Below, piece after piece: positions 3,159 to 60,945 of a stretch of DNA of 64,000 nt. How positions within the stretch are numbered: position 1 is the first letter of the stretch; every line of letters starts with the position of its first letter. This DNA is from Eledone cirrhosa. Lineage: Eukaryota. The notes under the pieces were generated by a model, which made no database searches, had not been told where the DNA came from, and saw only the letters and a program-made list of their open reading frames with translations. The DNA is taken from the NCBI GenBank assembly GCA_964016885.1, contig OZ024749.1, forward strand, positions 5,022,001-5,086,000, given 5' to 3'. A program made the position numbers and the translations under genes.

Positions 3159-3216
3159 TTCATTCTGAGGATTGAAAGCAAAACCTTTTGCTTTTAAGAA
3201 ACCACTGGTAAATGGA
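3159..3216 (+). ncRNA. Type I hammerhead ribozyme (GUA site)
   Basis: ttcatt-CTGAGGA-ttgaaagcaaaa/cc/ttttgcttttaa-GAAAC-cactg-GTA-aatgga. Helices I, II and III can all form. Confidence 0.75.
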
Positions 3217-6125: not shown

Positions 6126-6128
<3 letters not shown>

Positions 6129-6335
6129 AAAATGTTCAAGACCCCGGCGGCAGAGCTCAAGGCGTTTCGACGGCTTTTTCTGTCAAGAAATATTTTAGTC
6201 CAGAAATAGCCGTCGAAACGGCTTGAGCTCTGCCGTCGGGGTCTTGAAAATATTCGTATTACCCACTCTACTACCCTAAGTATTGAGTACTCTGGTTCGT
6301 CATGGTCCATCTGGTTCCTTACCACAACTCATTCG

Positions 6336-6374
<39 letters not shown>

Positions 6375-6478
6375 TATATATATATAACGAAGGAACCAGA
6401 TGGCCTATAAAGCATATATTTTTGTCCAGAATTAGCCGTCGAAACGGCTTCAGCTCAGCCGGCGGGGTCCTACTTGTT

Positions 6479-6480
<2 letters not shown>
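6126..6480. repeat. Palindromic dispersed repeat fragments in (TA)n (probable PLE pLTR tips); related copy at ~54490-54610
   Basis: 6137-6246 is a hairpin (aagaccccggcggcagagctcaag...cttgagctctgccgtcggggtctt). The motif gagctc(a/t)gccg(t/g)cggggtc recurs at ~6450 and ~54505. Confidence 0.65.
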
Positions 6481-6528
<48 letters not shown>

Positions 6529-6778: not shown

Positions 6779-6820
<42 letters not shown>

Positions 6821-6839
6821 CAAATAACGAAACGAAATT

Positions 6840-9800
6840 AAGCGTCAGTCATACAAAAGTGAGTTACAAACGAAGCGAAATTTAATTTCGTTTCGTTATT
6901 TGTTTTTATCGTCTCCGTTGAACCGGTACTTACTCACACTCTATGCAAATTAGTCTGCCCACTACTAATGTTCATAGAAAAAGCATATAACGATATGTGC
7001 TTTTACGATTCTCTAGAGAGGCCGGAAGATAGGTAAATATTGCTGATGAGTTGTAACAACAACGAAACTAGTTCAATATTCCTTGTCTGGCTTTCTGGAG
7101 AATAGAGGAAAGGTGTTTCCTCAAAAACCAGTATGACTCTAAAAACCGGTTTGTCTGTGTGTTTACATACAGAATAGCTGGCCACTCACAGTAAAGTGAC
7201 CAGTGAAAAAACTTTATAAAAAAAAAAAAACTTGGTACATCTACATATGTATACGTGTGTGTATTCATATACATACTAGTATTTCAGTATACATATATGG
7301 ATGTACATCTTTAACTTAATTGTTTAAGCGTCAGTCATACAAAAGTGAGTTACAAACGAAGCGAAATTTAATTTCGTTTCGTTATTTGTTTTTATCGTCT
7401 CCGTTGAACCGGTACTTACTCACACTCTATGCAAATTAGTCTGCCCACTACTAATGTTCATAGAAAAAGCATATAACGATATGTGCTTTTACGATTCTCT
7501 AGAGAGGCCGGAAGATAGGTAAATATTGCTGATGAGTTGTAACAACAACGAAACTAGTTCAATATTCCTTGTCTGGCTTTCTGGAGAATAGAGGAAAGGT
7601 GTTTCCTCAAAAACCAGTATGACTCTAAAAACCGGTTTGTCTGTGTGTTTACATACAGAATAGCTGGCCACTCACAGTAAAGTGACCAGTGAAAAAACTT
7701 TATAAAAAAAAAAAAAACTTGGTACATCTACATATGTATACGTGTGTGTATTCATATACATACTAGTATTTCAGTATACATATATGGATGTACATCTTTA
7801 ACTTAATTGTTTAAGCGTCAGTCATACAAAAGTGAGTTACAAACGAAGCGAAATTTAATTTCGTTTCGTTATTTGTTTTTATCGTCTCCGTTGAACCGGT
7901 ACTTACTCACACTCTATGCAAATTAGTCTGCCCACTACTAATGTTCATAGAAAAAGCATATAACGATATGTGCTTTTACGATTCTCTAGAGAGGCCGGAA
8001 GATAGGTAAATATTGCTGATGAGTTGTAACAACAACGAAACTAGTTCAATATTCCTTGTCTGGCTTTCTGGAGAATAGAGGAAAGGTGTTTCCTCAAAAA
8101 CCAGTATGACTCTAAAAACCGGTTTGTCTGTGTGTTTACATACAGAATAGCTGGCCACTCACAGTAAAGTGACCAGTGAAAAAACTTTATAAAAAAAAAA
8201 AAACTTGGTACATCTACATATGTATACGTGTGTGTATTCATATACATACTAGTATTTCAGTATACATATATGGATGTACATCTTTAACTTAATTGTTTAA
8301 GCGTCAGTCATACAAAAGTGAGTTACAAACGAAGCGAAATTTAATTTCGTTTCGTTATTTGTTTTTATCGTCTCCGTTGAACCGGTACTTACTCACACTC
8401 TATGCAAATTAGTCTGCCCACTACTAATGTTCATAGAAAAAGCATATAACGATATGTGCTTTTACGATTCTCTAGAGAGGCCGGAAGATAGGTAAATATT
8501 GCTGATGAGTTGTAACAACAACGAAACTAGTTCAATATTCCTTGTCTGGCTTTCTGGAGAATAGAGGAAAGGTGTTTCCTCAAAAACCAGTATGACTCTA
8601 AAAACCGGTTTGTCTGTGTGTTTACATACAGAATAGCTGGCCACTCACAGTAAAGTGACCAGTGAAAAAACTTTATAAAAAAAAAAAAACTTGGTACATC
8701 TACATATGTATACGTGTGTGTATTCATATACATACTAGTATTTCAGTATACATATATGGATGTACATCTTTAACTTAATTGTTTAAGCGTCAGTCATACA
8801 AAAGTGAGTTACAAACGAAGCGAAATTTAATTTCGTTTCGTTATTTGTTTTTATCGTCTCCGTTGAACCGGTACTTACTCACACTCTATGCAAATTAGTC
8901 TGCCCACTACTAATGTTCATAGAAAAAGCATATAATGATATGTGCTTTTACGATTCTCTAGAGAGGCCGGAAGATAGGTAAATATTGCTGATGAGTTGTA
9001 ACAACAACGAAACTAGTTCAATATTCCTTGTCTGGCTTTCTGGAGAATAGAGGAAAGGTGTTTCCTCAAAAACCAGTATGACTCTAAAAACCGGTTTGTC
9101 TGTGTGTTTACATACAGAATAGCTGGCCACTCACAGTAAAGTGACCAGTGAAAAAACTTTATAAAAAAAAAAAAACTTGGTACATCTACATATGTATACG
9201 TGTGTGTATTCATATACATACTAGTATTTCAGTATACATATATGGATGTACATCTTTAACTTAATTGTTTAAGCGTCAGTCATACAAAAGTGAGTTACAA
9301 ACGAAGCGAAATTTAATTTCGTTTCGTTATTTGTTTTTATCGTCTCCGTTGAACCGGTACTTACTCACACTCTATGCAAATTAGTCTGCCCACTACTAAT
9401 GTTCATAGAAAAAGCATATAACGATATGTGCTTTTACGATTCTCTAGAGAGGCCGGAAGATAGGTAAATATTGCTGATGAGTTGTAACAACAACGAAACT
9501 AGTTCAATATTCCTTGTCTGGCTTTCTGGAGAATAGAGGAAAGGTGTTTCCTCAAAAACCAGTATGACTCTAAAAACCGGTTTGTCTGTGTGTTTACATA
9601 CAGAATAGCTGGCCACTCACAGTAAAGTGACCAGTGAAAAAACTTTATAAAAAAAAAAAAACTTGGTACATCTACATATGTATACGTGTGTGTATTCATA
9701 TACATACTAGTATTTCAGTATACATATATGGATGTACATCTTTAACTTAATTGTTTAAGCGTCAGTCATACAAAAGTGAGTTACAAACGAAGCGAAATTT

Positions 9801-12800
9801 AATTTCGTTTCGTTATTTGTTTTTATCGTCTCCGTTGAACCGGTACTTACTCACACTCTATGCAAATTAGTCTGCCCACTACTAATGTTCATAGAAAAAG
9901 CATATAACGATATGTGCTTTTACGATTCTCTAGAGAGGCCGGAAGATAGGTAAATATTGCTGATGAGTTGTAACAACAACGAAACTAGTTCAATATTCCT
10001 TGTCTGGCTTTCTGGAGAATAGAGGAAAGGTGTTTCCTCAAAAACCAGTATGACTCTAAAAACCGGTTTGTCTGTGTGTTTACATACAGAATAGCTGGCC
10101 ACTCACAGTAAAGTGACCAGTGAAAAAACTTTATAAAAAAAAAAAAACTTGGTACATCTACATATGTATACGTGTGTGTATTCATATACATACTAGTATT
10201 TCAGTATACATATATGGATGTACATCTTTAACTTAATTGTTTAAGCGTCAGTCATACAAAAGTGAGTTACAAACGAAGCGAAATTTAATTTCGTTTCGTT
10301 ATTTGTTTTTATCGTCTCCGTTGAACCGGTACTTACTCACACTCTATGCAAATTAGTCTGCCCACTACTAATGTTCATAGAAAAAGCATATAACGATATG
10401 TGCTTTTACGATTCTCTAGAGAGGCCGGAAGATAGGTAAATATTGCTGATGAGTTGTAACAACAACGAAACTAGTTCAATATTCCTTGTCTGGCTTTCTG
10501 GAGAATAGAGGAAAGGTGTTTCCTCAAAAACCAGTATGACTCTAAAAACCGGTTTGTCTGTGTGTTTACATACAGAATAGCTGGCCACTCACAGTAAAGT
10601 GACCAGTGAAAAAACTTTATAAAAAAAAAAAAACTTGGTACATCTACATATGTATACGTGTGTGTATTCATATACATACTAGTATTTCAGTATACATATA
10701 TGGATGTACATCTTTAACTTAATTGTTTAAGCGTCAGTCATACAAAAGTGAGTTACAAACGAAGCGAAATTTAATTTCGTTTCGTTATTTGTTTTTATCG
10801 TCTCCGTTGAACCGGTACTTACTCACACTCTATGCAAATTAGTCTGCCCACTACTAATGTTCATAGAAAAAGCATATAACGATATGTGCTTTTACGATTC
10901 TCTAGAGAGGCCGGAAGATAGGTAAATATTGCTGATGAGTTGTAACAACAACGAAACTAGTTCAATATTCCTTGTCTGGCTTTCTGGAGAATAGAGGAAA
11001 GGTGTTTCCTCAAAAACCAGTATGACTCTAAAAACCGGTTTGTCTGTGTGTTTACATACAGAATAGCTGGCCACTCACAGTAAAGTGACCAGTGAAAAAA
11101 CTTTATAAAAAAAAAAAAACTTGGTACATCTACATATGTATACGTGTGTGTATTCATATACATACTAGTATTTCAGTATACATATATGGATGTACATCTT
11201 TAACTTAATTGTTTAAGCGTCAGTCATACAAAAGTGAGTTACAAACGAAGCGAAATTTAATTTCGTTTCGTTATTTGTTTTTATCGTCTCCGTTGAACCG
11301 GTACTTACTCACACTCTATGCAAATTAGTCTGCCCACTACTAATGTTCATAGAAAAAGCATATAACGATATGTGCTTTTACGATTCTCTAGAGAGGCCGG
11401 AAGATAGGTAAATATTGCTGATGAGTTGTAACAACAACGAAACTAGTTCAATATTCCTTGTCTGGCTTTCTGGAGAATAGAGGAAAGGTGTTTCCTCAAA
11501 AACCAGTATGACTCTAAAAACCGGTTTGTCTGTGTGTTTACATACAGAATAGCTGGCCACTCACAGTAAAGTGACCAGTGAAAAAACTTTATAAAAAAAA
11601 AAAAAACTTGGTACATCTACATATGTATACGTGTGTGTATTCATATACATACTAGTATTTCAGTATACATATATGGATGTACATCTTTAACTTAATTGTT
11701 TAAGCGTCAGTCATACAAAAGTGAGTTACAAACGAAGCGAAATTTAATTTCGTTTCGTTATTTGTTTTTATCGTCTCCGTTGAACCGGTACTTACTCACA
11801 CTCTATGCAAATTAGTCTGCCCACTACTAATGTTCATAGAAAAAGCATATAACGATATGTGCTTTTACGATTCTCTAGAGAGGCCGGAAGATAGGTAAAT
11901 ATTGCTGATGAGTTGTAACAACAACGAAACTAGTTCAATATTCCTTGTCTGGCTTTCTGGAGAATAGAGGAAAGGTGTTTCCTCAAAAACCAGTATGACT
12001 CTAAAAACCGGTTTGTCTGTGTGTTTACATACAGAATAGCTGGCCACTCACAGTAAAGTGACCAGTGAAAAAACTTTATAAAAAAAAAAAAACTTGGTAC
12101 ATCTACATATGTATACGTGTGTGTATTCATATACATACTAGTATTTCAGTATACATATATGGATGTACATCTTTAACTTAATTGTTTAAGCGTCAGTCAT
12201 ACAAAAGTGAGTTACAAACGAAGCGAAATTTAATTTCGTTTCGTTATTTGTTTTTATCGTCTCCGTTGAACCGGTACTTACTCACACTCTATGCAAATTA
12301 GTCTGCCCACTACTAATGTTCATAGAAAAAGCATATAACGATATGTGCTTTTACGATTCTCTAGAGAGGCCGGAAGATAGGTAAATATTGCTGATGAGTT
12401 GTAACAACAACGAAACTAGTTCAATATTCCTTGTCTGGCTTTCTGGAGAATAGAGGAAAGGTGTTTCCTCAAAAACCAGTATGACTCTAAAAACCGGTTT
12501 GTCTGTGTGTTTACATACAGAATAGCTGGCCACTCACAGTAAAGTGACCAGTGAAAAAACTTTATAAAAAAAAAAAAACTTGGTACATCTACATATGTAT
12601 ACGTGTGTGTATTCATATACATACTAGTATTTCAGTATACATATATGGATGTACATCTTTAACTTAATTGTTTAAGCGTCAGTCATACAAAAGTGAGTTA
12701 CAAACGAAGCGAAATTTAATTTCGTTTCGTTATTTGTTTTTATCGTCTCCGTTGAACCGGTACTTACTCACACTCTATGCAAATTAGTCTGCCCACTACT

Positions 12801-15800
12801 AATGTTCATAGAAAAAGCATATAACGATATGTGCTTTTACGATTCTCTAGAGAGGCCGGAAGATAGGTAAATATTGCTGATGAGTTGTAACAACAACGAA
12901 ACTAGTTCAATATTCCTTGTCTGGCTTTCTGGAGAATAGAGGAAAGGTGTTTCCTCAAAAACCAGTATGACTCTAAAAACCGGTTTGTCTGTGTGTTTAC
13001 ATACAGAATAGCTGGCCACTCACAGTAAAGTGACCAGTGAAAAAACTTTATAAAAAAAAAAAAACTTGGTACATCTACATATGTATACGTGTGTGTATTC
13101 ATATACATACTAGTATTTCAGTATACATATATGGATGTACATCTTTAACTTAATTGTTTAAGCGTCAGTCATACAAAAGTGAGTTACAAACGAAGCGAAA
13201 TTTAATTTCGTTTCGTTATTTGTTTTTATCGTCTCCGTTGAACCGGTACTTACTCACACTCTATGCAAATTAGTCTGCCCACTACTAATGTTCATAGAAA
13301 AAGCATATAACGATATGTGCTTTTACGATTCTCTAGAGAGGCCGGAAGATAGGTAAATATTGCTGATGAGTTGTAACAACAACGAAACTAGTTCAATATT
13401 CCTTGTCTGGCTTTCTGGAGAATAGAGGAAAGGTGTTTCCTCAAAAACCAGTATGACTCTAAAAACCGGTTTGTCTGTGTGTTTACATACAGAATAGCTG
13501 GCCACTCACAGTAAAGTGACCAGTGAAAAAACTTTATAAAAAAAAAAAAACTTGGTACATCTACATATGTATACGTGTGTGTATTCATATACATACTAGT
13601 ATTTCAGTATACATATATGGATGTACATCTTTAACTTAATTGTTTAAGCGTCAGTCATACAAAAGTGAGTTACAAACGAAGCGAAATTTAATTTCGTTTC
13701 GTTATTTGTTTTTATCGTCTCCGTTGAACCGGTACTTACTCACACTCTATGCAAATTAGTCTGCCCACTACTAATGTTCATAGAAAAAGCATATAACGAT
13801 ATGTGCTTTTACGATTCTCTAGAGAGGCCGGAAGATAGGTAAATATTGCTGATGAGTTGTAACAACAACGAAACTAGTTCAATATTCCTTGTCTGGCTTT
13901 CTGGAGAATAGAGGAAAGGTGTTTCCTCAAAAACCAGTATGACTCTAAAAACCGGTTTGTCTGTGTGTTTACATACAGAATAGCTGGCCACTCACAGTAA
14001 AGTGACCAGTGAAAAAACTTTATAAAAAAAAAAAAACTTGGTACATCTACATATGTATACGTGTGTGTATTCATATACATACTAGTATTTCAGTATACAT
14101 ATATGGATGTACATCTTTAACTTAATTGTTTAAGCGTCAGTCATACAAAAGTGAGTTACAAACGAAGCGAAATTTAATTTCGTTTCGTTATTTGTTTTTA
14201 TCGTCTCCGTTGAACCGGTACTTACTCACACTCTATGCAAATTAGTCTGCCCACTACTAATGTTCATAGAAAAAGCATATAACGATATGTGCTTTTACGA
14301 TTCTCTAGAGAGGCCGGAAGATAGGTAAATATTGCTGATGAGTTGTAACAACAACGAAACTAGTTCAATATTCCTTGTCTGGCTTTCTGGAGAATAGAGG
14401 AAAGGTGTTTCCTCAAAAACCAGTATGACTCTAAAAACCGGTTTGTCTGTGTGTTTACATACAGAATAGCTGGCCACTCACAGTAAAGTGACCAGTGAAA
14501 AAACTTTATAAAAAAAAAAAAACTTGGTACATCTACATATGTATACGTGTGTGTATTCATATACATACTAGTATTTCAGTATACATATATGGATGTACAT
14601 CTTTAACTTAATTGTTTAAGCGTCAGTCATACAAAAGTGAGTTACAAACGAAGCGAAATTTAATTTCGTTTCGTTATTTGTTTTTATCGTCTCCGTTGAA
14701 CCGGTACTTACTCACACTCTATGCAAATTAGTCTGCCCACTACTAATGTTCATAGAAAAAGCATATAACGATATGTGCTTTTACGATTCTCTAGAGAGGC
14801 CGGAAGATAGGTAAATATTGCTGATGAGTTGTAACAACAACGAAACTAGTTCAATATTCCTTGTCTGGCTTTCTGGAGAATAGAGGAAAGGTGTTTCCTC
14901 AAAAACCAGTATGACTCTAAAAACCGGTTTGTCTGTGTGTTTACATACAGAATAGCTGGCCACTCACAGTAAAGTGACCAGTGAAAAAACTTTATAAAAA
15001 AAAAAAAACTTGGTACATCTACATATGTATACGTGTGTGTATTCATATACATACTAGTATTTCAGTATACATATATGGATGTACATCTTTAACTTAATTG
15101 TTTAAGCGTCAGTCATACAAAAGTGAGTTACAAACGAAGCGAAATTTAATTTCGTTTCGTTATTTGTTTTTATCGTCTCCGTTGAACCGGTACTTACTCA
15201 CACTCTATGCAAATTAGTCTGCCCACTACTAATGTTCATAGAAAAAGCATATAACGATATGTGCTTTTACGATTCTCTAGAGAGGCCGGAAGATAGGTAA
15301 ATATTGCTGATGAGTTGTAACAACAACGAAACTAGTTCAATATTCCTTGTCTGGCTTTCTGGAGAATAGAGGAAAGGTGTTTCCTCAAAAACCAGTATGA
15401 CTCTAAAAACCGGTTTGTCTGTGTGTTTACATACAGAATAGCTGGCCACTCACAGTAAAGTGACCAGTGAAAAAACTTTATAAAAAAAAAAAAACTTGGT
15501 ACATCTACATATGTATACGTGTGTGTATTCATATACATACTAGTATTTCAGTATACATATATGGATGTACATCTTTAACTTAATTGTTTAAGCGTCAGTC
15601 ATACAAAAGTGAGTTACAAACGAAGCGAAATTTAATTTCGTTTCGTTATTTGTTTTTATCGTCTCCGTTGAACCGGTACTTACTCACACTCTATGCAAAT
15701 TAGTCTGCCCACTACTAATGTTCATAGAAAAAGCATATAACGATATGTGCTTTTACGATTCTCTAGAGAGGCCGGAAGATAGGTAAATATTGCTGATGAG

Positions 15801-18800
15801 TTGTAACAACAACGAAACTAGTTCAATATTCCTTGTCTGGCTTTCTGGAGAATAGAGGAAAGGTGTTTCCTCAAAAACCAGTATGACTCTAAAAACCGGT
15901 TTGTCTGTGTGTTTACATACAGAATAGCTGGCCACTCACAGTAAAGTGACCAGTGAAAAAACTTTATAAAAAAAAAAAAACTTGGTACATCTACATATGT
16001 ATACGTGTGTGTATTCATATACATACTAGTATTTCAGTATACATATATGGATGTACATCTTTAACTTAATTGTTTAAGCGTCAGTCATACAAAAGTGAGT
16101 TACAAACGAAGCGAAATTTAATTTCGTTTCGTTATTTGTTTTTATCGTCTCCGTTGAACCGGTACTTACTCACACTCTATGCAAATTAGTCTGCCCACTA
16201 CTAATGTTCATAGAAAAAGCATATAACGATATGTGCTTTTACGATTCTCTAGAGAGGCCGGAAGATAGGTAAATATTGCTGATGAGTTGTAACAACAACG
16301 AAACTAGTTCAATATTCCTTGTCTGGCTTTCTGGTGAATAGAGGAAAGGTGTTTCCTCAAAAACCAGTATGACTCTAAAAACCGGTTTGTCTGTGTGTTT
16401 ACATACAGAATAGCTGGCCACTCACAGTAAAGTGACCAGTGAAAAAACTTTATAAAAAAAAAAAAACTTGGTACATCTACATATGTATACGTGTGTGTAT
16501 TCATATACATACTAGTATTTCAGTATACATATATGGATGTACATCTTTAACTTAATTGTTTAAGCGTCAGTCATACAAAAGTGAGTTACAAACGAAGCGA
16601 AATTTAATTTCGTTTCGTTATTTGTTTTTATCGTCTCCGTTGAACCGGTACTTACTCACACTCTATGCAAATTAGTCTGCCCACTACTAATGTTCATAGA
16701 AAAAGCATATAACGATATGTGCTTTTACGATTCTCTAGAGAGGCCGGAAGATAGGTAAATATTGCTGATGAGTTGTAACAACAACGAAACTAGTTCAATA
16801 TTCCTTGTCTGGCTTTCTGGAGAATAGAGGAAAGGTGTTTCCTCAAAAACCAGTATGACTCTAAAAACCGGTTTGTCTGTGTGTTTACATACAGAATAGC
16901 TGGCCACTCACAGTAAAGTGACCAGTGAAAAAACTTTATAAAAAAAAAAAAAACTTGGTACATCTACATATGTATACGTGTGTGTATTCATATACATACT
17001 AGTATTTCAGTATACATATATGGATGTACATCTTTAACTTAATTGTTTAAGCGTCAGTCATACAAAAGTGAGTTACAAACGAAGCGAAATTTAATTTCGT
17101 TTCGTTATTTGTTTTTATCGTCTCCGTTGAACCGGTACTTACTCACACTCTATGCAAATTAGTCTGCCCACTACTAATGTTCATAGAAAAAGCATATAAC
17201 GATATGTGCTTTTACGATTCTCTAGAGAGGCCGGAAGATAGGTAAATATTGCTGATGAGTTGTAACAACAACGAAACTAGTTCAATATTCCTTGTCTGGC
17301 TTTCTGGAGAATAGAGGAAAGGTGTTTCCTCAAAAACCAGTATGACTCTAAAAACCGGTTTGTCTGTGTGTTTACATACAGAATAGCTGGCCACTCACAG
17401 TAAAGTGACCAGTGAAAAAACTTTATAAAAAAAAAAAAACTTGGTACATCTACATATGTATACGTGTGTGTATTCATATACATACTAGTATTTCAGTATA
17501 CATATATGGATGTACATCTTTAACTTAATTGTTTAAGCGTCAGTCATACAAAAGTGAGTTACAAACGAAGCGAAATTTAATTTCGTTTCGTTATTTGTTT
17601 TTATCGTCTCCGTTGAACCGGTACTTACTCACACTCTATGCAAATTAGTCTGCCCACTACTAATGTTCATAGAAAAAGCATATAACGATATGTGCTTTTA
17701 CGATTCTCTAGAGAGGCCGGAAGATAGGTAAATATTGCTGATGAGTTGTAACAACAACGAAACTAGTTCAATATTCCTTGTCTGGCTTTCTGGAGAATAG
17801 AGGAAAGGTGTTTCCTCAAAAACCAGTATGACTCTAAAAACCGGTTTGTCTGTGTGTTTACATACAGAATAGCTGGCCACTCACAGTAAAGTGACCAGTG
17901 AAAAAACTTTATAAAAAAAAAAAAACTTGGTACATCTACATATGTATACGTGTGTGTATTCATATACATACTAGTATTTCAGTATACATATATGGATGTA
18001 CATCTTTAACTTAATTGTTTAAGCGTCAGTCATACAAAAGTGAGTTACAAACGAAGCGAAATTTAATTTCGTTTCGTTATTTGTTTTTATCGTCTCCGTT
18101 GAACCGGTACTTACTCACACTCTATGCAAATTAGTCTGCCCACTACTAATGTTCATAGAAAAAGCATATAACGATATGTGCTTTTACGATTCTCTAGAGA
18201 GGCCGGAAGATAGGTAAATATTGCTGATGAGTTGTAACAACAACGAAACTAGTTCAATATTCCTTGTCTGGCTTTCTGGAGAATAGAGGAAAGGTGTTTC
18301 CTCAAAAACCAGTATGACTCTAAAAACCGGTTTGTCTGTGTGTTTACATACAGAATAGCTGGCCACTCACAGTAAAGTGACCAGTGAAAAAACTTTATAA
18401 AAAAAAAAAAACTTGGTACATCTACATATGTATACGTGTGTGTATTCATATACATACTAGTATTTCAGTATACATATATGGATGTACATCTTTAACTTAA
18501 TTGTTTAAGCGTCAGTCATACAAAAGTGAGTTACAAACGAAGCGAAATTTAATTTCGTTTCGTTATTTGTTTTTATCGTCTCCGTTGAACCGGTACTTAC
18601 TCACACTCTATGCAAATTAGTCTGCCCACTACTAATGTTCATAGAAAAAGCATATAACGATATGTGCTTTTACGATTCTCTAGAGAGGCCGGAAGATAGG
18701 TAAATATTGCTGATGAGTTGTAACAACAACGAAACTAGTTCAATATTCCTTGTCTGGCTTTCTGGAGAATAGAGGAAAGGTGTTTCCTCAAAAACCAGTA

Positions 18801-21422
18801 TGACTCTAAAAACCGGTTTGTCTGTGTGTTTACATACAGAATAGCTGGCCACTCACAGTAAAGTGACCAGTGAAAAAACTTTATAAAAAAAAAAAAACTT
18901 GGTACATCTACATATGGATACGTGTGTGTATTCATATACATACTAGTATTTCAGTATACATATATGGATGTACATCTTTAACTTAATTGTTTAAGCGTCA
19001 GTCATACAAAAGTGAGTTACAAACGAAGCGAAATTTAATTTCGTTTCGTTATTTGTTTTTATCGTCTCCGTTGAACCGGTACTTACTCACACTCTATGCA
19101 AATTAGTCTGCCCACTACTAATGTTCATAGAAAAAGCATATAACGATATGTGCTTTTACGATTCTCTAGAGAGGCCGGAAGATAGGTAAATATTGCTGAT
19201 GAGTTGTAACAACAACGAAACTAGTTCAATATTCCTTGTCTGGCTTTCTGGAGAATAGAGGAAAGGTGTTTCCTCAAAAACCAGTATGACTCTAAAAACC
19301 GGTTTGTCTGTGTGTTTACATACAGAATAGCTGGCCACTCACAGTAAAGTGACCAGTGAAAAAACTTTATAAAAAAAAAAAAACTTGGTACATCTACATA
19401 TGTATACGTGTGTGTATTCATATACATACTAGTATTTCAGTATACATATATGGATGTACATCTTTAACTTAATTGTTTAAGCGTCAGTCATACAAAAGTG
19501 AGTTACAAACGAAGCGAAATTTAATTTCGTTTCGTTATTTGTTTTTATCGTCTCCGTTGAACCGGTACTTACTCACACTCTATGCAAATTAGTCTGCCCA
19601 CTACTAATGTTCATAGAAAAAGCATATAACGATATGTGCTTTTACGATTCTCTAGAGAGGCCGGAAGATAGGTAAATATTGCTGATGAGTTGTAACAACA
19701 ACGAAACTAGTTCAATATTCCTTGTCTGGCTTTCTGGAGAATAGAGGAAAGGTGTTTCCTCAAAAACCAGTATGACTCTAAAAACCGGTTTGTCTGTGTG
19801 TTTACATACAGAATAGCTGGCCACTCACAGTAAAGTGACCAGTGAAAAAACTTTATAAAAAAAAAAAAACTTGGTACATCTACATATGTATACGTGTGTG
19901 TATTCATATACATACTAGTATTTCAGTATACATATATGGATGTACATCTTTAACTTAATTGTTTAAGCGTCAGTCATACAAAAGTGAGTTACAAACGAAG
20001 CGAAATTTAATTTCGTTTCGTTATTTGTTTTTATCGTCTCCGTTGAACCGGTACTTACTCACACTCTATGCAAATTAGTCTGCCCACTACTAATGTTCAT
20101 AGAAAAAGCATATAACGATATGTGCTTTTACGATTCTCTAGAGAGGCCGGAAGATAGGTAAATATTGCTGATGAGTTGTAACAACAACGAAACTAGTTCA
20201 ATATTCCTTGTCTGGCTTTCTGGAGAATAGAGGAAAGGTGTTTCCTCAAAAACCAGTATGACTCTAAAAACCGGTTTGTCTGTGTGTTTACATACAGAAT
20301 AGCTGGCCACTCACAGTAAAGTGACCAGTGAAAAAACTTTATAAAAAAAAAAAAACTTGGTACATCTACATATGTATACGTGTGTGTATTCATATACATA
20401 CTAGTATTTCAGTATACATATATGGATGTACATCTTTAACTTAATTGTTTAAGCGTCAGTCATACAAAAGTGAGTTACAAACGAAGCGAAATTTAATTTC
20501 GTTTCGTTATTTGTTTTTATCGTCTCCGTTGAACCGGTACTTACTCACACTCTATGCAAATTAGTCTGCCCACTACTAATGTTCATAGAAAAAGCATATA
20601 ACGATATGTGCTTTTACGATTCTCTAGAGAGGCCGGAAGATAGGTAAATATTGCTGATGAGTTGTAACAACAACGAAACTAGTTCAATATTCCTTGTCTG
20701 GCTTTCTGGAGAATAGAGGAAAGGTGTTTCCTCAAAAACCAGTATGACTCTAAAAACCGGTTTGTCTGTGTGTTTACATACAGAATAGCTGGCCACTCAC
20801 AGTAAAGTGACCAGTGAAAAAACTTTATAAAAAAAAAAAAACTTGGTACATCTACATATGTATACGTGTGTGTATTCATATACATACTAGTATTTCAGTA
20901 TACATATATGGATGTACATCTTTAACTTAATTGTTTAAGCGTCAGTCATACAAAAGTGAGTTACAAACGAAGCGAAATTTAATTTCGTTTCGTTATTTGT
21001 TTTTATCGTCTCCGTTGAACCGGTACTTACTCACACTCTATGCAAATTAGTCTGCCCACTACTAATGTTCATAGAAAAAGCATATAACGATATGTGCTTT
21101 TACGATTCTCTAGAGAGGCCGGAAGATAGGTAAATATTGCTGATGAGTTGTAACAACAACGAAACTAGTTCAATATTCCTTGTCTGGCTTTCTGGAGAAT
21201 AGAGGAAAGGTGTTTCCTCAAAAACCAGTATGACTCTAAAAACCGGTTTGTCTGTGTGTTTACATACAGAATAGCTGGCCACTCACAGTAAAGTGACCAG
21301 TGAAAAAACTTTATAAAAAAAAAAAAACTTGGTACATCTACATATGTATACGTGTGTGTATTCATATACATACTAGTATTTCAGTATACATATATGGATG
21401 TACATCTTTAACTTAATTGTTT
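6840..21422 (+). repeat. Tandem array of 30 x 486-bp hammerhead-containing units (retrozyme-like satellite)
   Basis: Period 486 (aagcgtcag at 6840, 7326, ...). 14583 bp = 30x486 + 3 extra A's (units 2, 10, 21). Only three substitutions noticed (8936, 16335, 18917). Flanked by (TA)n on both sides. Confidence 0.97.
7036..7080 (+). ncRNA. Type I hammerhead ribozyme of the array unit (first of 30; last at 21133-21177)
   Basis: Helix I aatattg/caatatt (7 bp), CTGATGA 7043-7049, helix II gttg-taacaa-caac, GAAA 7064-7067, palindromic CTAG, GUU cleavage triplet 7071-7073. Confidence 0.9.
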
Positions 21423-21443
21423 ATATATATATATATATACACA

Positions 21444-21603
<160 letters not shown>

Positions 21604-23294: not shown

Positions 23295-24509
<1,215 letters not shown>

Positions 24510-25130: not shown

Positions 25131-27821
25131 AGTTGCATTTATCTTGCTTTATGTTCATACGAGTTATCACCAAGTCATAACCAGTGACCTCAAGAGACAA
25201 CAAGGTCCGCTATGTTCAAGAAAGAACATACATATTCACACATGCATCTTTAGTGTTTAGACTTGTGATGTACTTATATTGACAGAATCTTCCTTAGTAT
25301 ATGGGCAGTTCCCATTAGTACTATCTTTTGTATTTCTCCTATACGCGGGTTTCCTGGGATTTGCGATAAGTAGTCATTAGACCCCTTAGGTATCATTCCC
25401 AGAGCGCCTACAACCACTGGTATTGTTTTAGTTCTCAATTTCCACATTTTTCCAATTTCTATCTCCAGGTCCTTATAGTTGCTCAATTTTTCAAATGTTT
25501 TTATAGATACATTCTTGTCTATTGGAACAGACATATCAATTAGCAGGCATACCCTCTTTTTAAAGTCCTTCAATATTATATCAGGTCTATTTGCATCTAT
25601 TTTTCGGTCTGTTTGGATGCTAAAGTTCCACTAGATTGAGATGTGATCTTTTTCAAGTATGGGAGGTGGTTGATGCTCCCACCAATTCTTTTGATGGGGC
25701 AGGTCAAAATGCTTACACATTATCCAATGTATGTATTGTGCAGCTCTGTCATGCCTGTTTAGGTATTCGGTTCGAGCTATAGGACTGCACATTGAAATTA
25801 TATGGTCAATGGTCTCTGGTTGTTTTTTTCATACACGGCATAATGGGCTGCACCCATTTTTTATTATGTTGGCTTGGTAATTTTTTGTTGGCAGACACTG
25901 ATCTTGTGCCGATATAATCAGTCCTTCAGTCTCCGATTTCAGTCCAGAGGATACCAACCACTGAGGGGTTAAAGTTTTGTCAACATCAGGATTGTTAGCT
26001 CGCTCTGGGTATTTTCCATACAGAGGCTTTTCTTGCCATTTCTTAGTCAGTTTCTGTAGCAGTTCTTTCTTTGCAGTTACTTTTACCTGCTTTGCTTTTC
26101 CTGTGTTTTCCATTTCAGCAGTAAATGGGACTTCTGAAATGTGTAGTCCATTACTGTATCTTTGTGCATCTTTTGTAATGGAATATGATCTTTTGATGCT
26201 TTCGTGTTTCAAAACGAGTTTGATCATCCAATCATGTGATTCCCTTAGATATGTAGATAATCCAATTGTTGCAGTTTTCAACGCAATGTCTAACTGGATT
26301 AACCCACGTCCTCCTTCTTTCCTAGGGAGATATATTATATCTATATCTGCCTTAGGGTGATGCATTCTGTGCATGGTTAAGAATTTTCGAATTTTTGTAT
26401 CGAGCCTACGGATCTCTGTGCTTGACCAGTTGATGACATTGTAACTGTAGGTTACTACTGGTATGGCAAGCGTGTTTATGGCATCGATCCTATTCCTTGC
26501 ATTCAATTCCGTTCTTAAGATTGCTCTTACTCTGCGGTAACATTCCTTCCTTATCCTTTCCTTCATTGTCGAGTGCTTGATTCCGTCTCCTTCACAAACA
26601 CCTAGATATTTGTAAGTTTTTTCTTGATCAAGTTCTCTTATCACGTTCCCCCGATCAAGATTAATGTCTGAACTCTTCAGCAGCTTTCCTCTGGTGAACG
26701 TTGCTTTGGCGCATTTATCTAGTCCAAACTCCATTTTAATGTCATCACTGAACTGATTCATCATTTTTTGCAAATAATTTCAGGTCATCCATGTAGAACA
26801 GGTGATTAATGGTTTTGTCATAGACTTTATATCCATGTTTTGTTTCATTGAGCATTTTACTTAATGGTATAAGTGCGATGCAGAATAAAAGCGGTGATAA
26901 AGAGTCATCCTGAAAAATTCCACAATTAATATTAACTTCTCCAGCTTCCAGTGATTTTGTTTCACTATTCAAAAGGAGTGTCGTTTTCCATGTCTTCATA
27001 CTGAATGACAAAAACCTCCTGACAACGGGGGATATTTTGAAAATCTCTAAACATTTTTCAATCCAACTGTGTGGCAAACTATCGAATGCTTTTTTATAAT
27101 CTATCCAAGCAATCGATAGATTTTTGTGTCTATTATGACAATCTTCCAGTATCATTTTGTTAACCAGAAGCTGATCCTTACAGCCATATGAGCCTCGTTT
27201 ACACCCTTTCTGCTCAATGGGAAATAGATCATTTGTTATCAGGTGGTCATATGTGTATTCAGTTAGGACTGATGTTAAAATTTTATACATTGTGGTCAAG
27301 CAAGTTATCGGTCTGTAATTTTTGGGATTGTTTGTCTCATCATTCTTCGGAAGCAGGAATGTAATGCCGTTAACTAGCCATGATGGTATCTTTTCTGGCT
27401 CCTTAATTTTTTCATTGTAAAGTTGGGCTAACAGCTCATGAGACTCTGTGAAGCCATTTATCCAAAAGTTTTGTATTTTGTCTTTTCCTGGGGATTTCCA
27501 TTTGCTGGTTTTTCTTAGAGCCAAGCGCAACTGTTCAACTGTTATATTTTCCCATGTTTGTTCCTCAAGGTGAGCTGTATCTTTCATTTGTCTGTCTATC
27601 CATGGGGCATGTATGTTATGAACTTTTTCTTCGGCCCAGATCTTTTCCCAGAATTCTTGCACTTCCTCCTTGGGTGGTATTGATTTAGCAGTTATTTTTG
27701 ACTTACCAATTTTTCTGTAGAAGTTTCTTTGGTTGTTTTTGAACATATTATTGTCCTTATAGAATCTAGATCGTTTTTCAAAGCGCCTTATACGAGCAGC
27801 TTTGGCCGACACTTTTTGCTG
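25129..27821 (-). mobile_element. 5'-truncated Dong/R4-clade LINE (RT + CCHC + RLE endonuclease) inserted in (TAA)n
   Basis: RT motifs NYRPITCL, WIDYKKAFDS, GIFQDDSLSPLLF, HLFYMDDLKL, YKYLG. Zinc knuckle starts at CRV. RLE region IDMSVP..EKLSNY..PVVVGALG. (AAT)n tail at ~25096-25128 and (ATT)n upstream. Confidence 0.93.
25274..27812 (-). pseudogene. Frameshifted RT-RLE polyprotein (ORF pieces 26745-27812, 25829-26773, 25274-25573)
   Basis: Consecutive ORF-track fragments give RT, thumb and RLE domains, with frameshift/stop lesions. Confidence 0.9.
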
Positions 27822-28469
27822 GATTATTATTATTATTATTATTATTATAATAATGATAATAATTATTATTATTAGTAGTAGTATTTTTATTTCCCAACTA
27901 GCGGACCATTGAGAGTGAGTTAAACAGTTTTTTCACTTTTTTATTGTGTTTTTGTTTTGATATGCGCTCTATTTTCCTGCTATTAATTTTGTTTCTCACT
28001 CTTTTAAGTTGTGAAATAGACTGGTTCTCTACGCACGCGGCTGACACATTCCAGCTCGCTACTATATTGCTCGATAATGGGTAATCGCATCTAAAGTACG
28101 TTATAGGTTCTTGGAACTACCATTGTTACCATCGCTTTCCTCTAGCCACGGGGCTTGGAGGCATAAGCCGAATGCTACCATTCTATTATACATCGATGTG
28201 CGACTGCTATTTCTAATAGCCATCTTTTCACCTCTTATTAATTTGTGTGTGAGAGACGTTGGCTGAGAGCTTTTGACGGGTACGAAAGGATTAGTTTTCT
28301 CGTCTCGCGCCACCACGTAAAATGTGTAAATCGGTGGCTAGTCGAGAGATAGAGTCGTATTGGATGCCAGTTGCTTATCACTTTACCGCGTCAGTCGTCA
28401 TAAACAGTCATGACCGACATGGGCTGGTGTTTGGATTCTGTCGAGCGATTGGTTATTGATTAAGCCGTA

Positions 28470-28788: not shown

Positions 28789-29672
28789 GAGATGTGTCAG
28801 AAAAGTTCCAGGACTGATGTCACAAAAGATTTATTTCAAACCCTAACTTCACACTAAGAGTTCTCTCCTTCAACCTAATCCCCCTGGGGTATGTAACTGT
28901 AATCTTAGCTCTCTGCAGCGACCAAACTTTTTTCTTCCTAATTTTATATACATGTCCTCTGTTTCAGGTCGTCAAGCAATGAGCACAGAGCAACGAACAA
29001 ACTTGAAGTTTCTGGTACGGTTGGAGAAAACTCCGTCAGAAGCACTGGGATTGCTGCAGCAAGTGTATGGAGATGAGATGATGCCACGCTCACGTGTTTT
29101 TGAGTGGTGCAAGATGATACCAGGAGCCGAAGGCCCTCAACAACCAGGACTGAGGTGAACGTTGAGCGCGTGAGGAGGATGATGCGTAGCGATCGTCGGC
29201 TGACTGTTCGACTGATGGCAAATGAGCTGGGCACAAATCGGGACAGCTTCTGGAAGATTCTCACTGAAGGTTTGGACATGCAGAAAGTCTGCGCGAAGAT
29301 GGTGCCAAAACTGCTGAACGATGACCAGAAGGGTCGACGCATGCAAGTATCCCAGGACATCCTCGAGCGTCTTGAAACCGAACCAGACTTGCTAAGGACA
29401 GTCATCACCGGTGATGAGTCATGGAACTTCGAGTACGACCCGGAGGGGAACCGTTTTGAAGAAGTGGACGATATCAAAAAGGCCGTGACGACGGAACTGC
29501 GGAGGATCCCGGAAGAATTATTCCAGGAGTGCATGCATGCAGGGCAGAAAAGGATGTAAAAGTGCATTAGACTCCAGGAGGATTACTTTGAATGATAGAA
29601 CTCTTAGTGAGAAGTTTGGGTTTGAAATAAATCTTTTGTGACATCAGTCCTGGAACTTTTCTGAAACACCTC

Positions 29673-36714: not shown

Positions 36715-37465
<751 letters not shown>

Positions 37466-37469
37466 ATAT

Positions 37470-37674
37470 GCAGTTGAGTAAAAAGTCCAATGTTTAAAAT
37501 TAGCTTCGTTTATTACTGCTATATATATTTCAGTGACAGCCATCTTTGGCTGTGACCTCTTCAGGCAGTCCCAATTAGTGTGGTATAGACAAGTACATAT
37601 GTTGTTGACGTGTATAATTTTGTCAATACTCTGATATGTCCAGATTCTGGTTGGGTTGTTATTATATATTATAT

Positions 37675-37705
<31 letters not shown>

Positions 37706-37927
37706 ATGCAGTTGAATAAAAAGTCCAATGTTTAAAATTAGCTTCGTTTATTACTGCTATATATATTTCAGTGACAGCCATCTTTGGCTGTGACCTCTTC
37801 AGGCAGTCCCAATTAGTGTGGTATAGACAAGTACATATGTTGTTGACGTGTATAATTTTGTCAATACTCTGATATGTCCAGATTCTGGTTGGGTTGTTAT
37901 TTCACTGAGGAACTGGAATCATATGAG
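37470..37927 (-). mobile_element. Two tandem PLE-type pLTR tips, each with a minimal hammerhead (37515-37569, 37753-37807)
   Basis: Minus: actgc-CTGAAGA-ggtcacagcc/aaagat/ggctgtcact-GAAAT-ATAT-ATA-gcagt-AATAAA. Same family at 52200-52700. Confidence 0.85.
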
Positions 37928-52170: not shown

Positions 52171-52196
<26 letters not shown>

Positions 52197-52201
<5 letters not shown>

Positions 52202-52719
52202 AAAGTTAAATAAAAGTCAAATGATTAAAATTTAGCTTCATTTATTACTGCTATATATATTTCAGTGACAGCCATCTTTGGCTGTGACCTCTTCAGGCAG
52301 TTTGAATTAGTATGGTATAGACAAGTACATATGTTGTTTAGGTGTATAATATTGTCAATACTCTGATATGCCCAGTTCCCTGTTGGGTTGTTATTTCAAT
52401 GAGGAACTGGAGTCATATGACTTGAGTTCCTCATTGAAATAACAACCCAACAGGGAACTGGGCATATCAGAGTATTGACAATATTATACACCTAAACAAC
52501 ATATGTACTTGTCTATACCATACTAATTCAAACTGCCTGAAGAGGTCACAGCCAAAGATGGCTGTCACTGAAATAGCAGTAATAAACGAAGCTAAATTTT
52601 AATCATTTGACATTTATTTAACTTTATTTTACACGACTCCGGAGTAACCAAACCAAATTGCGCACTTTGTCGAGTGCTCCAGCCTGCATACTGAGGTGTT
52701 GGTATACAACCAACATAAA

Positions 52720-57124: not shown

Positions 57125-57659
57125 TTAAGAAACTTCCTTATAGACTATATTTTGGGTTTTCTCGCGAGTTTCCAAAGCAAATAGGTTATGCCGGCTCCCC
57201 ACTTGAGAGCAGCCAACATATAGTTGACCATGGGAGAAGCACGGTTCTTCGAAATTAAGCCCTACGACCGTCTGACCCTGTGATTTGTTAATCGACATGG
57301 CGAAACTGAACCGGAGAGGGAATTGCAGCCTTCTGAATGTGAAAGGAATGTCTTTACCGGATGGAATGATAGGTATCCTTGGTACGAATAAATGATTCCC
57401 CCTTACCACATCCTGTAAGTATTGTTGCCTCAATAACATGAGGCATCGCCTTTTGGACGACCAGACGCGTGCCTTCGGGAAGCCTTTGGGCTTCCAAATT
57501 CCTGAGGAGCATGACAGGGGCACATTTCTTAAGTCGCAGTAAGTGTGGTGGCAATCCGGGAGGGTCTAGGGAGTTAAGAAATGATGTCGGGTAATTAACA
57601 CCTTCGTCCAGATCTGCCATATAGTCAAGGGACTTGTAGCCATGCAGGTTTCCAGGCAA
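57125..57659 (-). pseudogene. Helitron PIF1-family helicase C-terminal fragment (frameshifted)
   Basis: ORFs 57354-57659 and 57125-57523 carry SF1B motifs IV-VI. Confidence 0.9.
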
Positions 57660-57769
57660 GCACAGCGTAGTCGGAGGAGGGGTCGTAGTTAAAGGCCTTC
57701 AACAGCCATCGTGAATTGCAAGTCCTAGAAATGCCACCTAATGATGATCGCTGCTGTTCATCTAGCAGA

Positions 57770-58170: not shown

Positions 58171-58742
58171 CAGCATCTTTGCTCTGTCGATATTCACGCC
58201 AACTGTCACCCTCCTCCGCTCATGCAGCTGCCGTCTGAACAACATTCTATGAGAGCCTGATCGCAGTTGCATTTACATCTCTTCGGAGAGACGCCTTCGC
58301 TTAGCCCTACTTACATCATTAGATAATCGACCAATGAAAGTTCTTTTCTTGGGGGGCATTGTTTTTAGAAAATTAACCAGGGAGAAAGATAAATAATGGA
58401 CAAATAAGGTTTAAGTAAGCAAATTTAAACACGGATATGAATTGTGAAAAAAATGTGATAAATCTATGGGGTCTGAGAAAGTGGGTATGTTTTGCAAGAT
58501 TTTGTGTACCAATCAAATTTCAGGTTTTAAGGTAGGGGAAACGCAGCGGACGGACTACCTGTCATAAAGGAAATTAAATAGTGTGGCTCCAGTGGTGGGT
58601 ATATAATGGGCATTATGTTTTTTCAGTTCGAACATAGCAATAAGTAAGTACTAACCATTGAAAGGATACAGGCAAAAATGGCCGAAAAATCACAGCATGA
58701 TAAACTGGAACCTTATGAACATAAACGCATTAACTAAACATC

Positions 58743-60945
58743 TCGCTGGCGGTTTCATCATGACAATGGACTCGGTGGTCAACTGGATTGGTTCCACCCG
58801 CGACACTAGTCGTCCTACATAGCCCCACAGGTCGGTAACGCCCGGGCAGTGTACAAATGCGTGCACGACGGTTTCCACGTTGCGCATACATCTTGGACAG
58901 ATCATTTTCGAAGCGTCTCTGCTCGGGCGCCCGTGTCTGTAGAGCTTGCCTCGAACTGGTAGAGCTCCTTGGTAGCACTGCCAGGCCAGGGACTTTTGGA
59001 AGTTGTCCATTGTTCCTGGGCGGAAGATCCTACCGAACAGACTGGCCAGTTCGTCCTCCTCTACGCCTAGAGTTTCTCCGAGCGCGTCGTCGCACTTGCT
59101 GCGGACCAACCTTCTATAGAAGGTCGAAGTGGAGTCTCCACTGATCGCCGGGTCCGTTTGCCAGAGGACTGTGAGCGCCTGACCACATTCGATGTGCCAG
59201 TCACCCATTTTCTTCGGTCTTTGCTTGACTCAGGCTGCAGCTCGGTCAGCGAGCCGAGTCGTGGGAAGGCTCGCCACACGAACGGGGGCACACACCGGTT
59301 GTCCGGTGAGGAATACGTGGAGGTGCCGCAGCCTGAGCGCGTGTTTGCGCATCGTCAGCCACAGCATCCCTAACCCTCTGTTTGAAGGGTGTTGGCAGCA
59401 GATGGATCTTCTCACCAAAGGATCCCGTTTCTTCAAAAGGAATTGAAAGAGCGCGCGCTCCATTTTGGTGAGCATTTTAGCTGGACAAAGCACAACAGTC
59501 AAGCGGTATTAGATGACGGACGCTATAAAAGTGTTCGCCACCTCCGGTCGACCTTTCAAGGATAGTTTGCACTCGGCCCACTGCTGGGTGAGCGCAAACA
59601 CCTTGGCCGTCAGCTCGTTGCAGTTCTTCTCCACCTGGAGGTCCGGACCAAACCAGACCCCGAGCAGCTTTACATGTCCTTCCGTCCAGCGTCCGAAGAC
59701 GCCATCGGAAGGCATCGGTTTGCCTCTCCACGTTCCGAGTTGCAAACCGACGGATTGGTCCCGGTTCAGCTTCGCTCCTGTGAAACTTTCGTATTCCTCC
59801 AGTAAGGTGCCGACATCCCCGATTTGTGAGGGGCTCGACACCATTACTGTCACGTCGTCGGCGCCGGCCGACGGCGCTTTTCGCTGTCCCGGTTCCAAAG
59901 GGAAGCCCTGCAATTGCTCCAACTTCCGCAGTAGTGGCTCGAGCGTCAGTACGTACAGAAGGGAGGAGAGAGGGCACCCTTGTCGGATGGATCGCGGGAT
60001 ATGGAACGGCTCCGAGAGGTAGCCGTTCATCTTGACCCTTGAGCAGATGATGTTGCTGTGCATTGCAGCAATCCAGCCCCTGAACACGGGTCCGAAGCCT
60101 ACCGCCTCGCGCACCGCATCCAGGTAACGATGGTCAACCCTATCGAAAGCTTTAGACTGATCCAAGTTGATCAGAGCCCCACCTAAACCGGGGTTACACC
60201 CTACCCTCACTATGATGTATCGCATGAGGTGGAGGTTATCGTGTATGGACCTAGTCGGGATTGCGCATGTCTGCGCTTCTCCCACCTGATTTTCGACGAC
60301 AAACACCAGCCTCTTTACCAACACCTTGGCCAAAATCTGTAACTCCTAGTTTAGCAGAGTTATGGGCCGGAAGTTGCCTATGTCATCCCCCTTATTCTCG
60401 TCCTTCCTGACTAACGTGTATACGCCCTTGGTCACAGAACTGGTAATTCTCCCATTCTGCTGCTGGCTGCTTCCATGAGACCGGAGAACAAGTCCGGCAT
60501 TGCTACGTAAAATTCGTAGGGCAGACCGTCGAGGTCTGGAGATTTGCGTTTGCCGCATTGGCTCAGCGCGTCCCCTATCTGATCGGCTGAAATCGGCCTT
60601 TGGCAGAACTTCGTCTCACCGTCCGACAGTCGCCGCACGCCGTCGAGGTATGGACCGAAACCCACAACCCCTCCCGGCGTGACGCCCTGACCGGACAGTT
60701 GAGCAAAGTGCCGCTGAAAGGCCGCGCACATCTGCTTCGGCTCACGTATTACGCGTCCGTCTTGGTCCTTCAAAAACCGAATCGTGGACTTGTTACCACT
60801 TTTCGCCTCCGTCACTCGGGCCCAGCTAACAGCTTTGTCTCCCTCGTTTCCCAGAGCACGTATCTTGCTCCTGACAACGCAGCCCCTTCGTGCTTTGTGT
60901 CGAAGAACTTTCCAAGGCCGTTCTTGTCGCTAACAAGCTGGTTAC
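58743..60945 (-). mobile_element. Tx1/L1-clade LINE ORF2 fragment (RT + zf-RVT), decayed and truncated at both ends
   Basis: SPDLDGLPYEFY, NFRPITLLN, LDQSKAFDRVDH, SIRQGCPLSSLLY, ADD, KLLGVWFG, GGLG-like RGLG, CPRC...ETVVHAFVHC. Confidence 0.92.

Follow-up and report, generated by a model that had tools for sequence, protein, structure and literature searches.

A tandem hammerhead array in Eledone cirrhosa as a probable retrozyme insertion made with a Penelope-like element protein

The stretch of DNA analysed here (the window: 64,000 nucleotides of Eledone cirrhosa, assembly GCA_964016885.1, contig OZ024749.1, forward-strand positions 5,022,001 to 5,086,000) carries a tandem array of 30 units of 486 bp, each containing a type I hammerhead ribozyme motif. 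With a probability of roughly 0.8, we read this array as a young insertion of a non-coding hammerhead retroelement, that is, a retrozyme without long terminal repeats (non-LTR retrozyme), which borrows the reverse transcriptase (RT)/GIY-YIG protein of a Penelope-like element (PLE). The array belongs to an abundant mobile repeat family of which it is a young insertion, unexceptional within its genome. Copies of the family end at one of two fixed 3' points, here called S and L, next to (TA)n tracts, and are mostly arranged as inverted arms, one ending at S and the other at L. These fixed ends, inverted arms and (TA)n targets directly support the mobilisation by a Penelope-like RT that a preliminary description of the window had proposed; the inverted arm and the ends adjoining (TA)n are absent from that account.

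Tandem Repeats Finder (TRF) assigns to window positions 6838-21423 a period of 486, 30.0 copies and 99% matches, which bears out the 30-copy array first described, although the count is that of one assembly across 14.6 kb of near-identical units. Of the 29 complete monomers, 23 have the same sequence. The variation consists of three private substitutions and of a poly-A run one base longer in three units, whose spacing is not periodic. The unit has a GC content of about 0.34, no stop-to-stop frame of at least 100 amino acids lies within 6838-21422, and the units run head to tail without an LTR pair (no separate search was made for a primer-binding site or polypurine tract). The predicted monomer RNA folds with z = -10.4, none of 100 shuffled sequences being equally stable, and with an energy of -153.1 kcal/mol as compared with -124.7 kcal/mol for the opposite strand. 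The window unit corresponds without substitution to the unit of another locus, L002, plus a 19-nt insertion that has 30 matches genome-wide, every one inside the window array. At the left end, the long and the short arm (Table 1) overlap by TTAA (6838-6841), and a target-site duplication is not resolvable because both flanks consist of (TA)n.

Table 1. Array, hammerhead and insertion ends, in positions of the window
Feature	Position	Strand	Remarks
Left (AT)n microsatellite	6782..6816		Insertion target (TRF)
Short inverted arm	6814..6841	-	Monomer 295-322, reverse complement of 6882-6909; outer end is the L (tail) site
Long arm	6838..21422	+	30.0 head-to-tail units of 486-487 bp; starts at monomer position 251, ends at the S site (monomer ~252)
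Type I hammerhead, first of 30	7036..7080	+	Helix I 7036-7042/7074-7080; core 7043-7049; helix II 7050-7053/7060-7063
Same hammerhead, 3' part	7064..7073	+	GAAA 7064-7067; palindromic loop III 7068-7071; predicted cut after 7073
Predicted monomer RNA between two cut sites	7074..7559	+	Highly self-paired
19-nt A-rich insertion	7206..7224	+	In all 30 units of the window array; private to the array
AT-rich hairpin, long	7235..7309	+	A short way 5' of the S site; the 424-nt family has a homologous hairpin
S site	7321..7326	+	Monomer 248, 250, 253; first fixed 3' end of the family; putative RT start; right end of the array at 21418-21423
Tail, S to L, ~70 nt	7327..7395	+	Hairpin 7357-7385; L site 7395 (6909 in the first unit), putative second RT start
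Right (TA)n microsatellite	21422..21599		Insertion target (TRF)

The view of the array as a singular satellite did not survive a search of the 3.0-Gb host genome. A degenerate hammerhead pattern of 33 letters matches exactly at 9,270 places there, its reversed control at none, and the L junction (position 322 followed by (AT)5) has 1,560 exact matches, again with none for the control, so that the family numbers at least about 1,560 insertions, the array among them. The S junction (positions 248-253) gives 698 matches on the forward strand and 1,281 on the reverse strand, the latter including repeats of one place. Complete units of the family measure 464-470 bp (45 loci), its subfamilies are 83-100% alike and its copies are dispersed. 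A second array with 30 complete units (L218 and L219, G000:C1:5738084-5752756) has a long arm ending at S and an L arm of 346 nt; here variants are common to non-adjacent units, and 8 of 14 substitution columns are shared. The unit also occurs in sequencing runs under four organism labels (six runs from four studies, of unstated kind, none of them listed as RNA). One contig of run X4 carries both partners of a helix II change together with GUC, and run X1 shows loose ends with (AT)n at 6909, 7813 and 7882. In a DNA search with the tail only, 28 of the 40 matches listed were the window array itself.

To describe the ends of the insertions we took 90 L-junction loci in chromosome order out of 100 listed (two were skipped as already taken and the last eight left out; L131 and L132 are duplicates within the sample), and all 90 belong to the window family. 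Inverted arms were resolved in 62 of them, 58 ending at S (244-253), four elsewhere and none at L; of the rest, 12 are single-arm loci and 16 extend beyond the sequence examined. One locus of L+L type (L051) was present in a separate, score-ranked set. S ends adjoin (TA)n in 50 of 51 cases. As this test begins from L, pairing was also counted unconditionally over 0-148 Mb of C1 (88 L and 80 S junctions listed): 35 of the 38 head-to-head pairs are L+S, where 19 would be expected if the ends were independent (p = 3e-8), with two S+S pairs and one L+L pair. The two arms of a locus are, moreover, closely alike. With the indel-rich positions 125-171 masked, arm-to-arm divergence within a locus has a median of 0.67% and a maximum of 3.3% (48 loci), compared with 4.5% to other loci, and the own partner arm is the best match in 22 of the 48. 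In 14 of 49 loci each arm extends beyond the other, which rules out that one arm was copied from its partner by fold-back; the remaining loci are compatible with such copying.

Arms are typically short, with a median of about one unit, and at least four of the 90 L arms and three of the 65 S arms are five units long or more. Nevertheless, multi-unit arms can be laid down at once: L220 holds 18 complete units across both arms without a single variable column, and L164 and L195 each have several identical units in both arms. For the 5' ends, 11 of the 90 L arms and 4 of the 65 S arms were left out as truncated, duplicate or ambiguous. The score-ranked loci seemed to show an enrichment of 5' ends at the ribozyme cut site, but among the loci taken in chromosome order 11 of 140 ends fall there where 7.8 are expected (p = 0.16), and for the S arms by themselves the count is 7 of 61 (p = 0.053), from which we conclude that the templates run through the cut site. 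The 5' ends of L arms do cluster near S (16 of 79, 6.3 expected, p = 4e-4), a count that may be biased because the AT-rich hairpin adjoins S. As a separate observation, two unit types in L054 are joined at a break, seven units being followed by three, which suggests a template switch or two insertions.

The full hammerhead motif (5' strand of helix I, CUGAUGA, helix II, GAAA, CUAG, UU, 3' strand of helix I) has 30 exact matches in the window, confirming the claim of one complete type I hammerhead per unit. The first lies at 7036, and the others follow at intervals of 486 nt (26 times) or 487 nt (three times), the predicted cuts falling after 7073 and once per unit from there on. The statement that no core position is altered stands for all 30 copies, yet it provides no independent evidence of selection: since the units are nearly identical (23 of 29 monomers), the intact cores speak for the youth of the array rather than for selection within it. 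The UU of the postulated GUU cleavage triplet is present, whereas its G is the last base of CUAG and not a separate one. Helix I (7 bp) gains 3 bp beyond a 2-nt bulge, 7031-7033 pairing with 7081-7083, helix II has 4 bp, and helix III consists of one base pair closing a palindromic loop. A search of the window with Rfam at the gathering threshold gave no match.

Better evidence comes from the family, where 128 loci were scanned and 117 contain the motif; 169 motifs are distinct per locus, and the 165 of window length were tallied. No core position is conserved in fewer than 161 of the 165, and the cleavage triplet is GUU in 97, GUC in 67 and GUG in one. One pair of helix II is U-A in 80 motifs and A-U in 84, with a single U-U mismatch, although this compensatory change counts as approximately one event because the copies are related. 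The consensus fold of 17 diverse units shows two-sided changes in 10 of 150 pairs. Judged from these sequences, the hammerhead is under selection in the family. A related retrozyme family with a unit of 424 nt (L136:6060-7144; L209:493-1063) has a GUA triplet and a U-U at the base of helix II and is 68% identical to the window family over about 200 nt. Its AT hairpin and tail are homologous to those of the window family, compensatory changes have preserved its helix I, and its insertions show the same two-ended arrangement.

PLEs are described as forming partial tandems and inverted, 5'-truncated copies with a tail of 30-40 bp, often at one end only, in (TA)n targets (PMC8557442). For the element PAc, in vitro work identifies the tail as the stretch between two internal RT start sites and reports that AT-rich DNA is cut and extended on both strands by the PAc protein, whose predicted form is a dimer (PMC11167929). 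The Eledone genome contains 10,596 GIY-YIG candidates, of which 150 were scored; most of the sampled PLEs are of Neptune or Nematis type by their CxxC linker (assigned by eye, with labels from PMC8557442). One Neptune-type PLE (L213:2760-6025) consists of two copies set head to head over 3,266 bp; they are 99.7% alike, and of the two ends in (TA)n one is short and the other carries the tail. The terminal repeat of this PLE contains a hammerhead variant with palindromic loop III and UU. The Neptune-type family to which it belongs (L213, L201, L205, L211) has this hammerhead variant, short and tailed ends, and a tail of about 42-60 nt. It follows the same end rule and loop III/UU architecture as the retrozyme family, with a different sequence. 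Two further loci, L198:2309-5122 (minus strand) and L200:275-3562, have long open PLE frames of 938 and 1,096 codons from stop to stop with RT matches, and in L198 a GIY-YIG match passes the threshold in addition to the RT match; by sequence, both are candidate active PLEs.

The reading proposed here involves a series of RNA steps that are modelled on other retrozymes (PMC7229834). Tandem units would be transcribed as plus-strand multimers, the hammerheads would cleave after GUU or GUC, probably as dimers through palindromic loop III, and the monomers would be ligated into circles. A PLE protein would then bind the hairpins around S and L and nick both strands of a (TA)n tract, upon which one complementary DNA (cDNA) could be primed at S and the other at L, from one template molecule or source transcript. 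Each cDNA would span anything from a fraction of a unit to many units, and the two would be joined head to head. For the window array, the L cDNA would have ended after 28 nt, and the S cDNA would constitute the long arm. With regard to cleavage, the duplex between two palindromic loops III (6-8 bp) has a calculated energy of -6.6 kcal/mol, and the fold energies suggest weak cleavage of the monomer with rescue as a dimer through this duplex. The duplex energy agrees with the dimeric mechanism reported for motifs of this type (PMC4209133, PMC7229834), while a dimeric helix III was not returned as the lowest-energy form when two motifs were co-folded.

Several observations weigh against the retrozyme reading or parts of it. 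In the lowest-energy fold of the motif (-9.4 kcal/mol, versus -4.6 kcal/mol with only helices I and II), the core CUG is base-paired to loop III; cleavage by the ribozyme is dispensable for PAc insertion in vitro (PMC11167929); and only one of nine predicted retrozyme dimers of Xenopus cleaved in vitro, the other eight did not (10.64898/2026.07.22.740005). No partner PLE with a terminal repeat homologous to the unit was found in 50 of the 10,596 GIY-YIG loci, searched by blastn and by profile with 12 family units, the window unit and one unit of the 424-nt family; all matches were nested retrozyme copies or AT-repeat noise. The retrozyme tail of about 70 nt is longer than both the published 30-40 bp and the 42-60 nt of the local Neptune-type family. 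In L064 two unit types alternate in both arms, and L056 contains a duplication of a 6-unit block; these two and the second 30-unit array need multimeric templates or later duplication. Finally, the likeness of arms could stem partly from conversion between inverted arms.

How the window array came to contain 30 units admits more than one account. The foremost alternative, to which we give somewhat less than an even chance, accepts the same PLE-driven insertion and ascribes most units to later unequal exchange or replication slippage of a short insert that already had the 19-nt extra. DNA-level change after insertion does occur in this family, as L056, L064 and the second 30-unit array demonstrate, and variants are shared within the last of these and within L056. 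Later expansion is also in keeping with the rarity of long arms, with the confinement of the 19-nt insertion to this locus and with a long arm that is an exact multiple of the unit, starting at 251 and ending at about 252. Expansion is harder to reconcile with the array's own variation, as all three substitutions are private and the poly-A variants aperiodic, weak evidence at n = 3, and the identical units in both arms of L220, L164 and L195 are more simply the product of one insertion event. The contrasting account, which we put forward tentatively and consider rather doubtful, is that a dimeric RT/endonuclease primes both (TA)n nicks on one ribozyme-made circle, at S and at L, and rolls for up to about 30 laps (14 kb), so that the 19-nt insertion would mark that particular circle. 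The insertion, present in all 30 units, and the three substitutions, all private, agree with 30 laps round a single circle; the exact-multiple length fits this account and later expansion.

Less likely than not, in our view, is a linear template that was read through from an array already in place and remained an uncleaved multimer, the hammerhead being slow or acting at another stage. The sequestered core of the predicted fold, the A/B alternation common to both arms of L064 and the use of uncleaved RNA by PAc in vitro (PMC11167929) all speak for it, and the cluster of L-arm 5' ends near S would be expected from twin priming on one linear RNA. Against a linear template stands the preservation of the ribozyme, which covariation and the GUU or GUC in 164 of 165 motifs show. 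A linear template of 30 units would further need a source array with the 19-nt insertion, of which none exists elsewhere in the assembly, and the coral, mussel and axolotl retrozymes make circles (PMC7229834).

It is improbable that the units are 5'-truncated terminal repeats (pLTRs) of an autonomous PLE and do not represent an independent element. The end signature is indeed the same as that of PLEs, and retrozymes and pLTRs are related in Xenopus (10.64898/2026.07.22.740005); however, no open reading frame (ORF) lies upstream of the L junction in any of the 90 loci within the 1.5-4 kb examined, the arms continue through whole units into further units, and beyond nested retrozyme copies there is no homology to the 3' ends of the 50 GIY-YIG loci. 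An ordinary satellite whose hammerhead-like motif arose by chance, or an error of assembly, is hardly credible. The empty Rfam scan and the possible miscounting of 14.6 kb of near-identical units by the assembler might suggest one or the other, but copies are dispersed in their thousands, have fixed ends and show covariation, the unit is found in runs under four different organism labels, and X4 has the compensatory pair of helix II together with GUC. A chance motif in particular is rejected by the 9,270 matches against none in the control, the z-score of the monomer and the covariation.

The window contains further repeats and mobile-element remnants. Two small head-to-head insertions in (TA)n, at 6128-6340 and 6385-6482, belong to another repeat family with a strong short hairpin, which has matches in 35 compared sequences and whose arms, by eye, end at different fixed points. 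A second hammerhead repeat with minus-strand motifs, at 37423-37901 and 52171-52623, forms a 238-bp dimer between (TA)n tracts, has a long helix II and a palindromic loop III, and matches 12 compared sequences. A relaxed scan yielded isolated hammerhead-like motifs at 3165 (plus strand) and about 32586 (minus strand). Broken mobile-element frames lie at 23405-23833, 25274-27932, 57125-57698 and 58690-60929 on the minus strand and at 29104-29559 on the plus strand; labelled by eye only, they comprise mariner-like transposase pieces, two non-LTR reverse transcriptases and a helicase-like piece.

The manner in which PLEs make tandem and inverted insertions is a question named as open in PMC8557442. 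The link between retrozymes and PLEs was formerly based on shared hammerheads, co-occurrence and similarity of terminal repeats; to this the window family adds unusually clean evidence at the level of junctions, namely fixed ends, the rule of one S and one L end per locus, and arms from the same template. An RNA of 467 nt without an ORF, with mapped putative start sites and identical young copies, is a compact substrate for studying tandem and inverted PLE insertion and the question whether circles serve as the actual templates. If the two-site rolling-circle account were true, thousands of genomic copies would record a PLE insertion mechanism not previously shown.

Tandem hammerhead repeats that are predicted or shown to give monomer RNAs are reportedly also represented by Schistosoma Sm-alpha and cricket pDo500. 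Newt satellite 2 is likened to the window family on the basis of its description as such a repeat (PMC7229834). In the literature compared, to which the supplements of two key papers, Repbase and Dfam did not belong, we found no description of the window family or of a one-S-one-L rule for retrozymes; searches on satellite DNA with hammerheads in cephalopods found nothing, and those on Penelope-like twin priming returned nothing on two-site retrozyme insertion by title or opening of the abstract. In the parts compared, neither PMC7229834, whose main text does not use the word 'inverted', nor the preprint by Li, Clavereau and Pollet (2026, 10.64898/2026.07.22.740005) mentions fixed S and L ends, inverted arms or (TA)n targets. 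The preprint argues that repeats of this kind are non-autonomous PLE derivatives, with consensus units of 51-972 bp and arrays of up to 300 units. Published non-LTR retrozymes have units of 225-245 bp in coral, 350-390 bp in mussel and 330/350 bp in axolotl (Cervera and de la Pena 2020, PMC7229834). The 486-bp unit exceeds the 150-450 bp of PMC7229834, as do the 464-470-bp units of the family, but placing it at the long end for animal retrozymes was an overstatement, since it lies within the range of the preprint, and 486 bp is a locus-private variant of the shorter family unit. The frequent GUU triplet is a further difference from metazoan non-LTR retrozymes.

Compared with PLEs of the Penelope/Poseidon, Neptune and Naiad types, the family is similar in its tandem and inverted 5'-truncated copies, its tail at one end and its AT-rich or (TA)n targets (PMC8557442, PMC11167929, PMC4209133), as well as in a type I hammerhead with palindromic helix III. 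It differs from the PLEs so described in its lack of an ORF, in a tail of about 70 nt instead of 30-40 bp, and in a sequence unrelated to the PLE ends sampled in the genome. With metazoan non-LTR retrozymes it shares non-coding tandem units with one type I hammerhead each, a GC content of 34%, thousands of copies, arrays from dimers to tens of units, a highly self-paired monomer and the presence of PLEs in the same genome. Its one-pair helix III with a palindromic tetraloop resembles that of axolotl HHR_Amex1, a motif that has to be dimeric to cleave well (PMC7229834). By its sequence features, then, the window family is of the metazoan non-LTR retrozyme kind and lacks the ORF (RT plus GIY-YIG) of an autonomous PLE; set against the published descriptions, it appears to be a previously undescribed member of that class, a novelty of modest extent.

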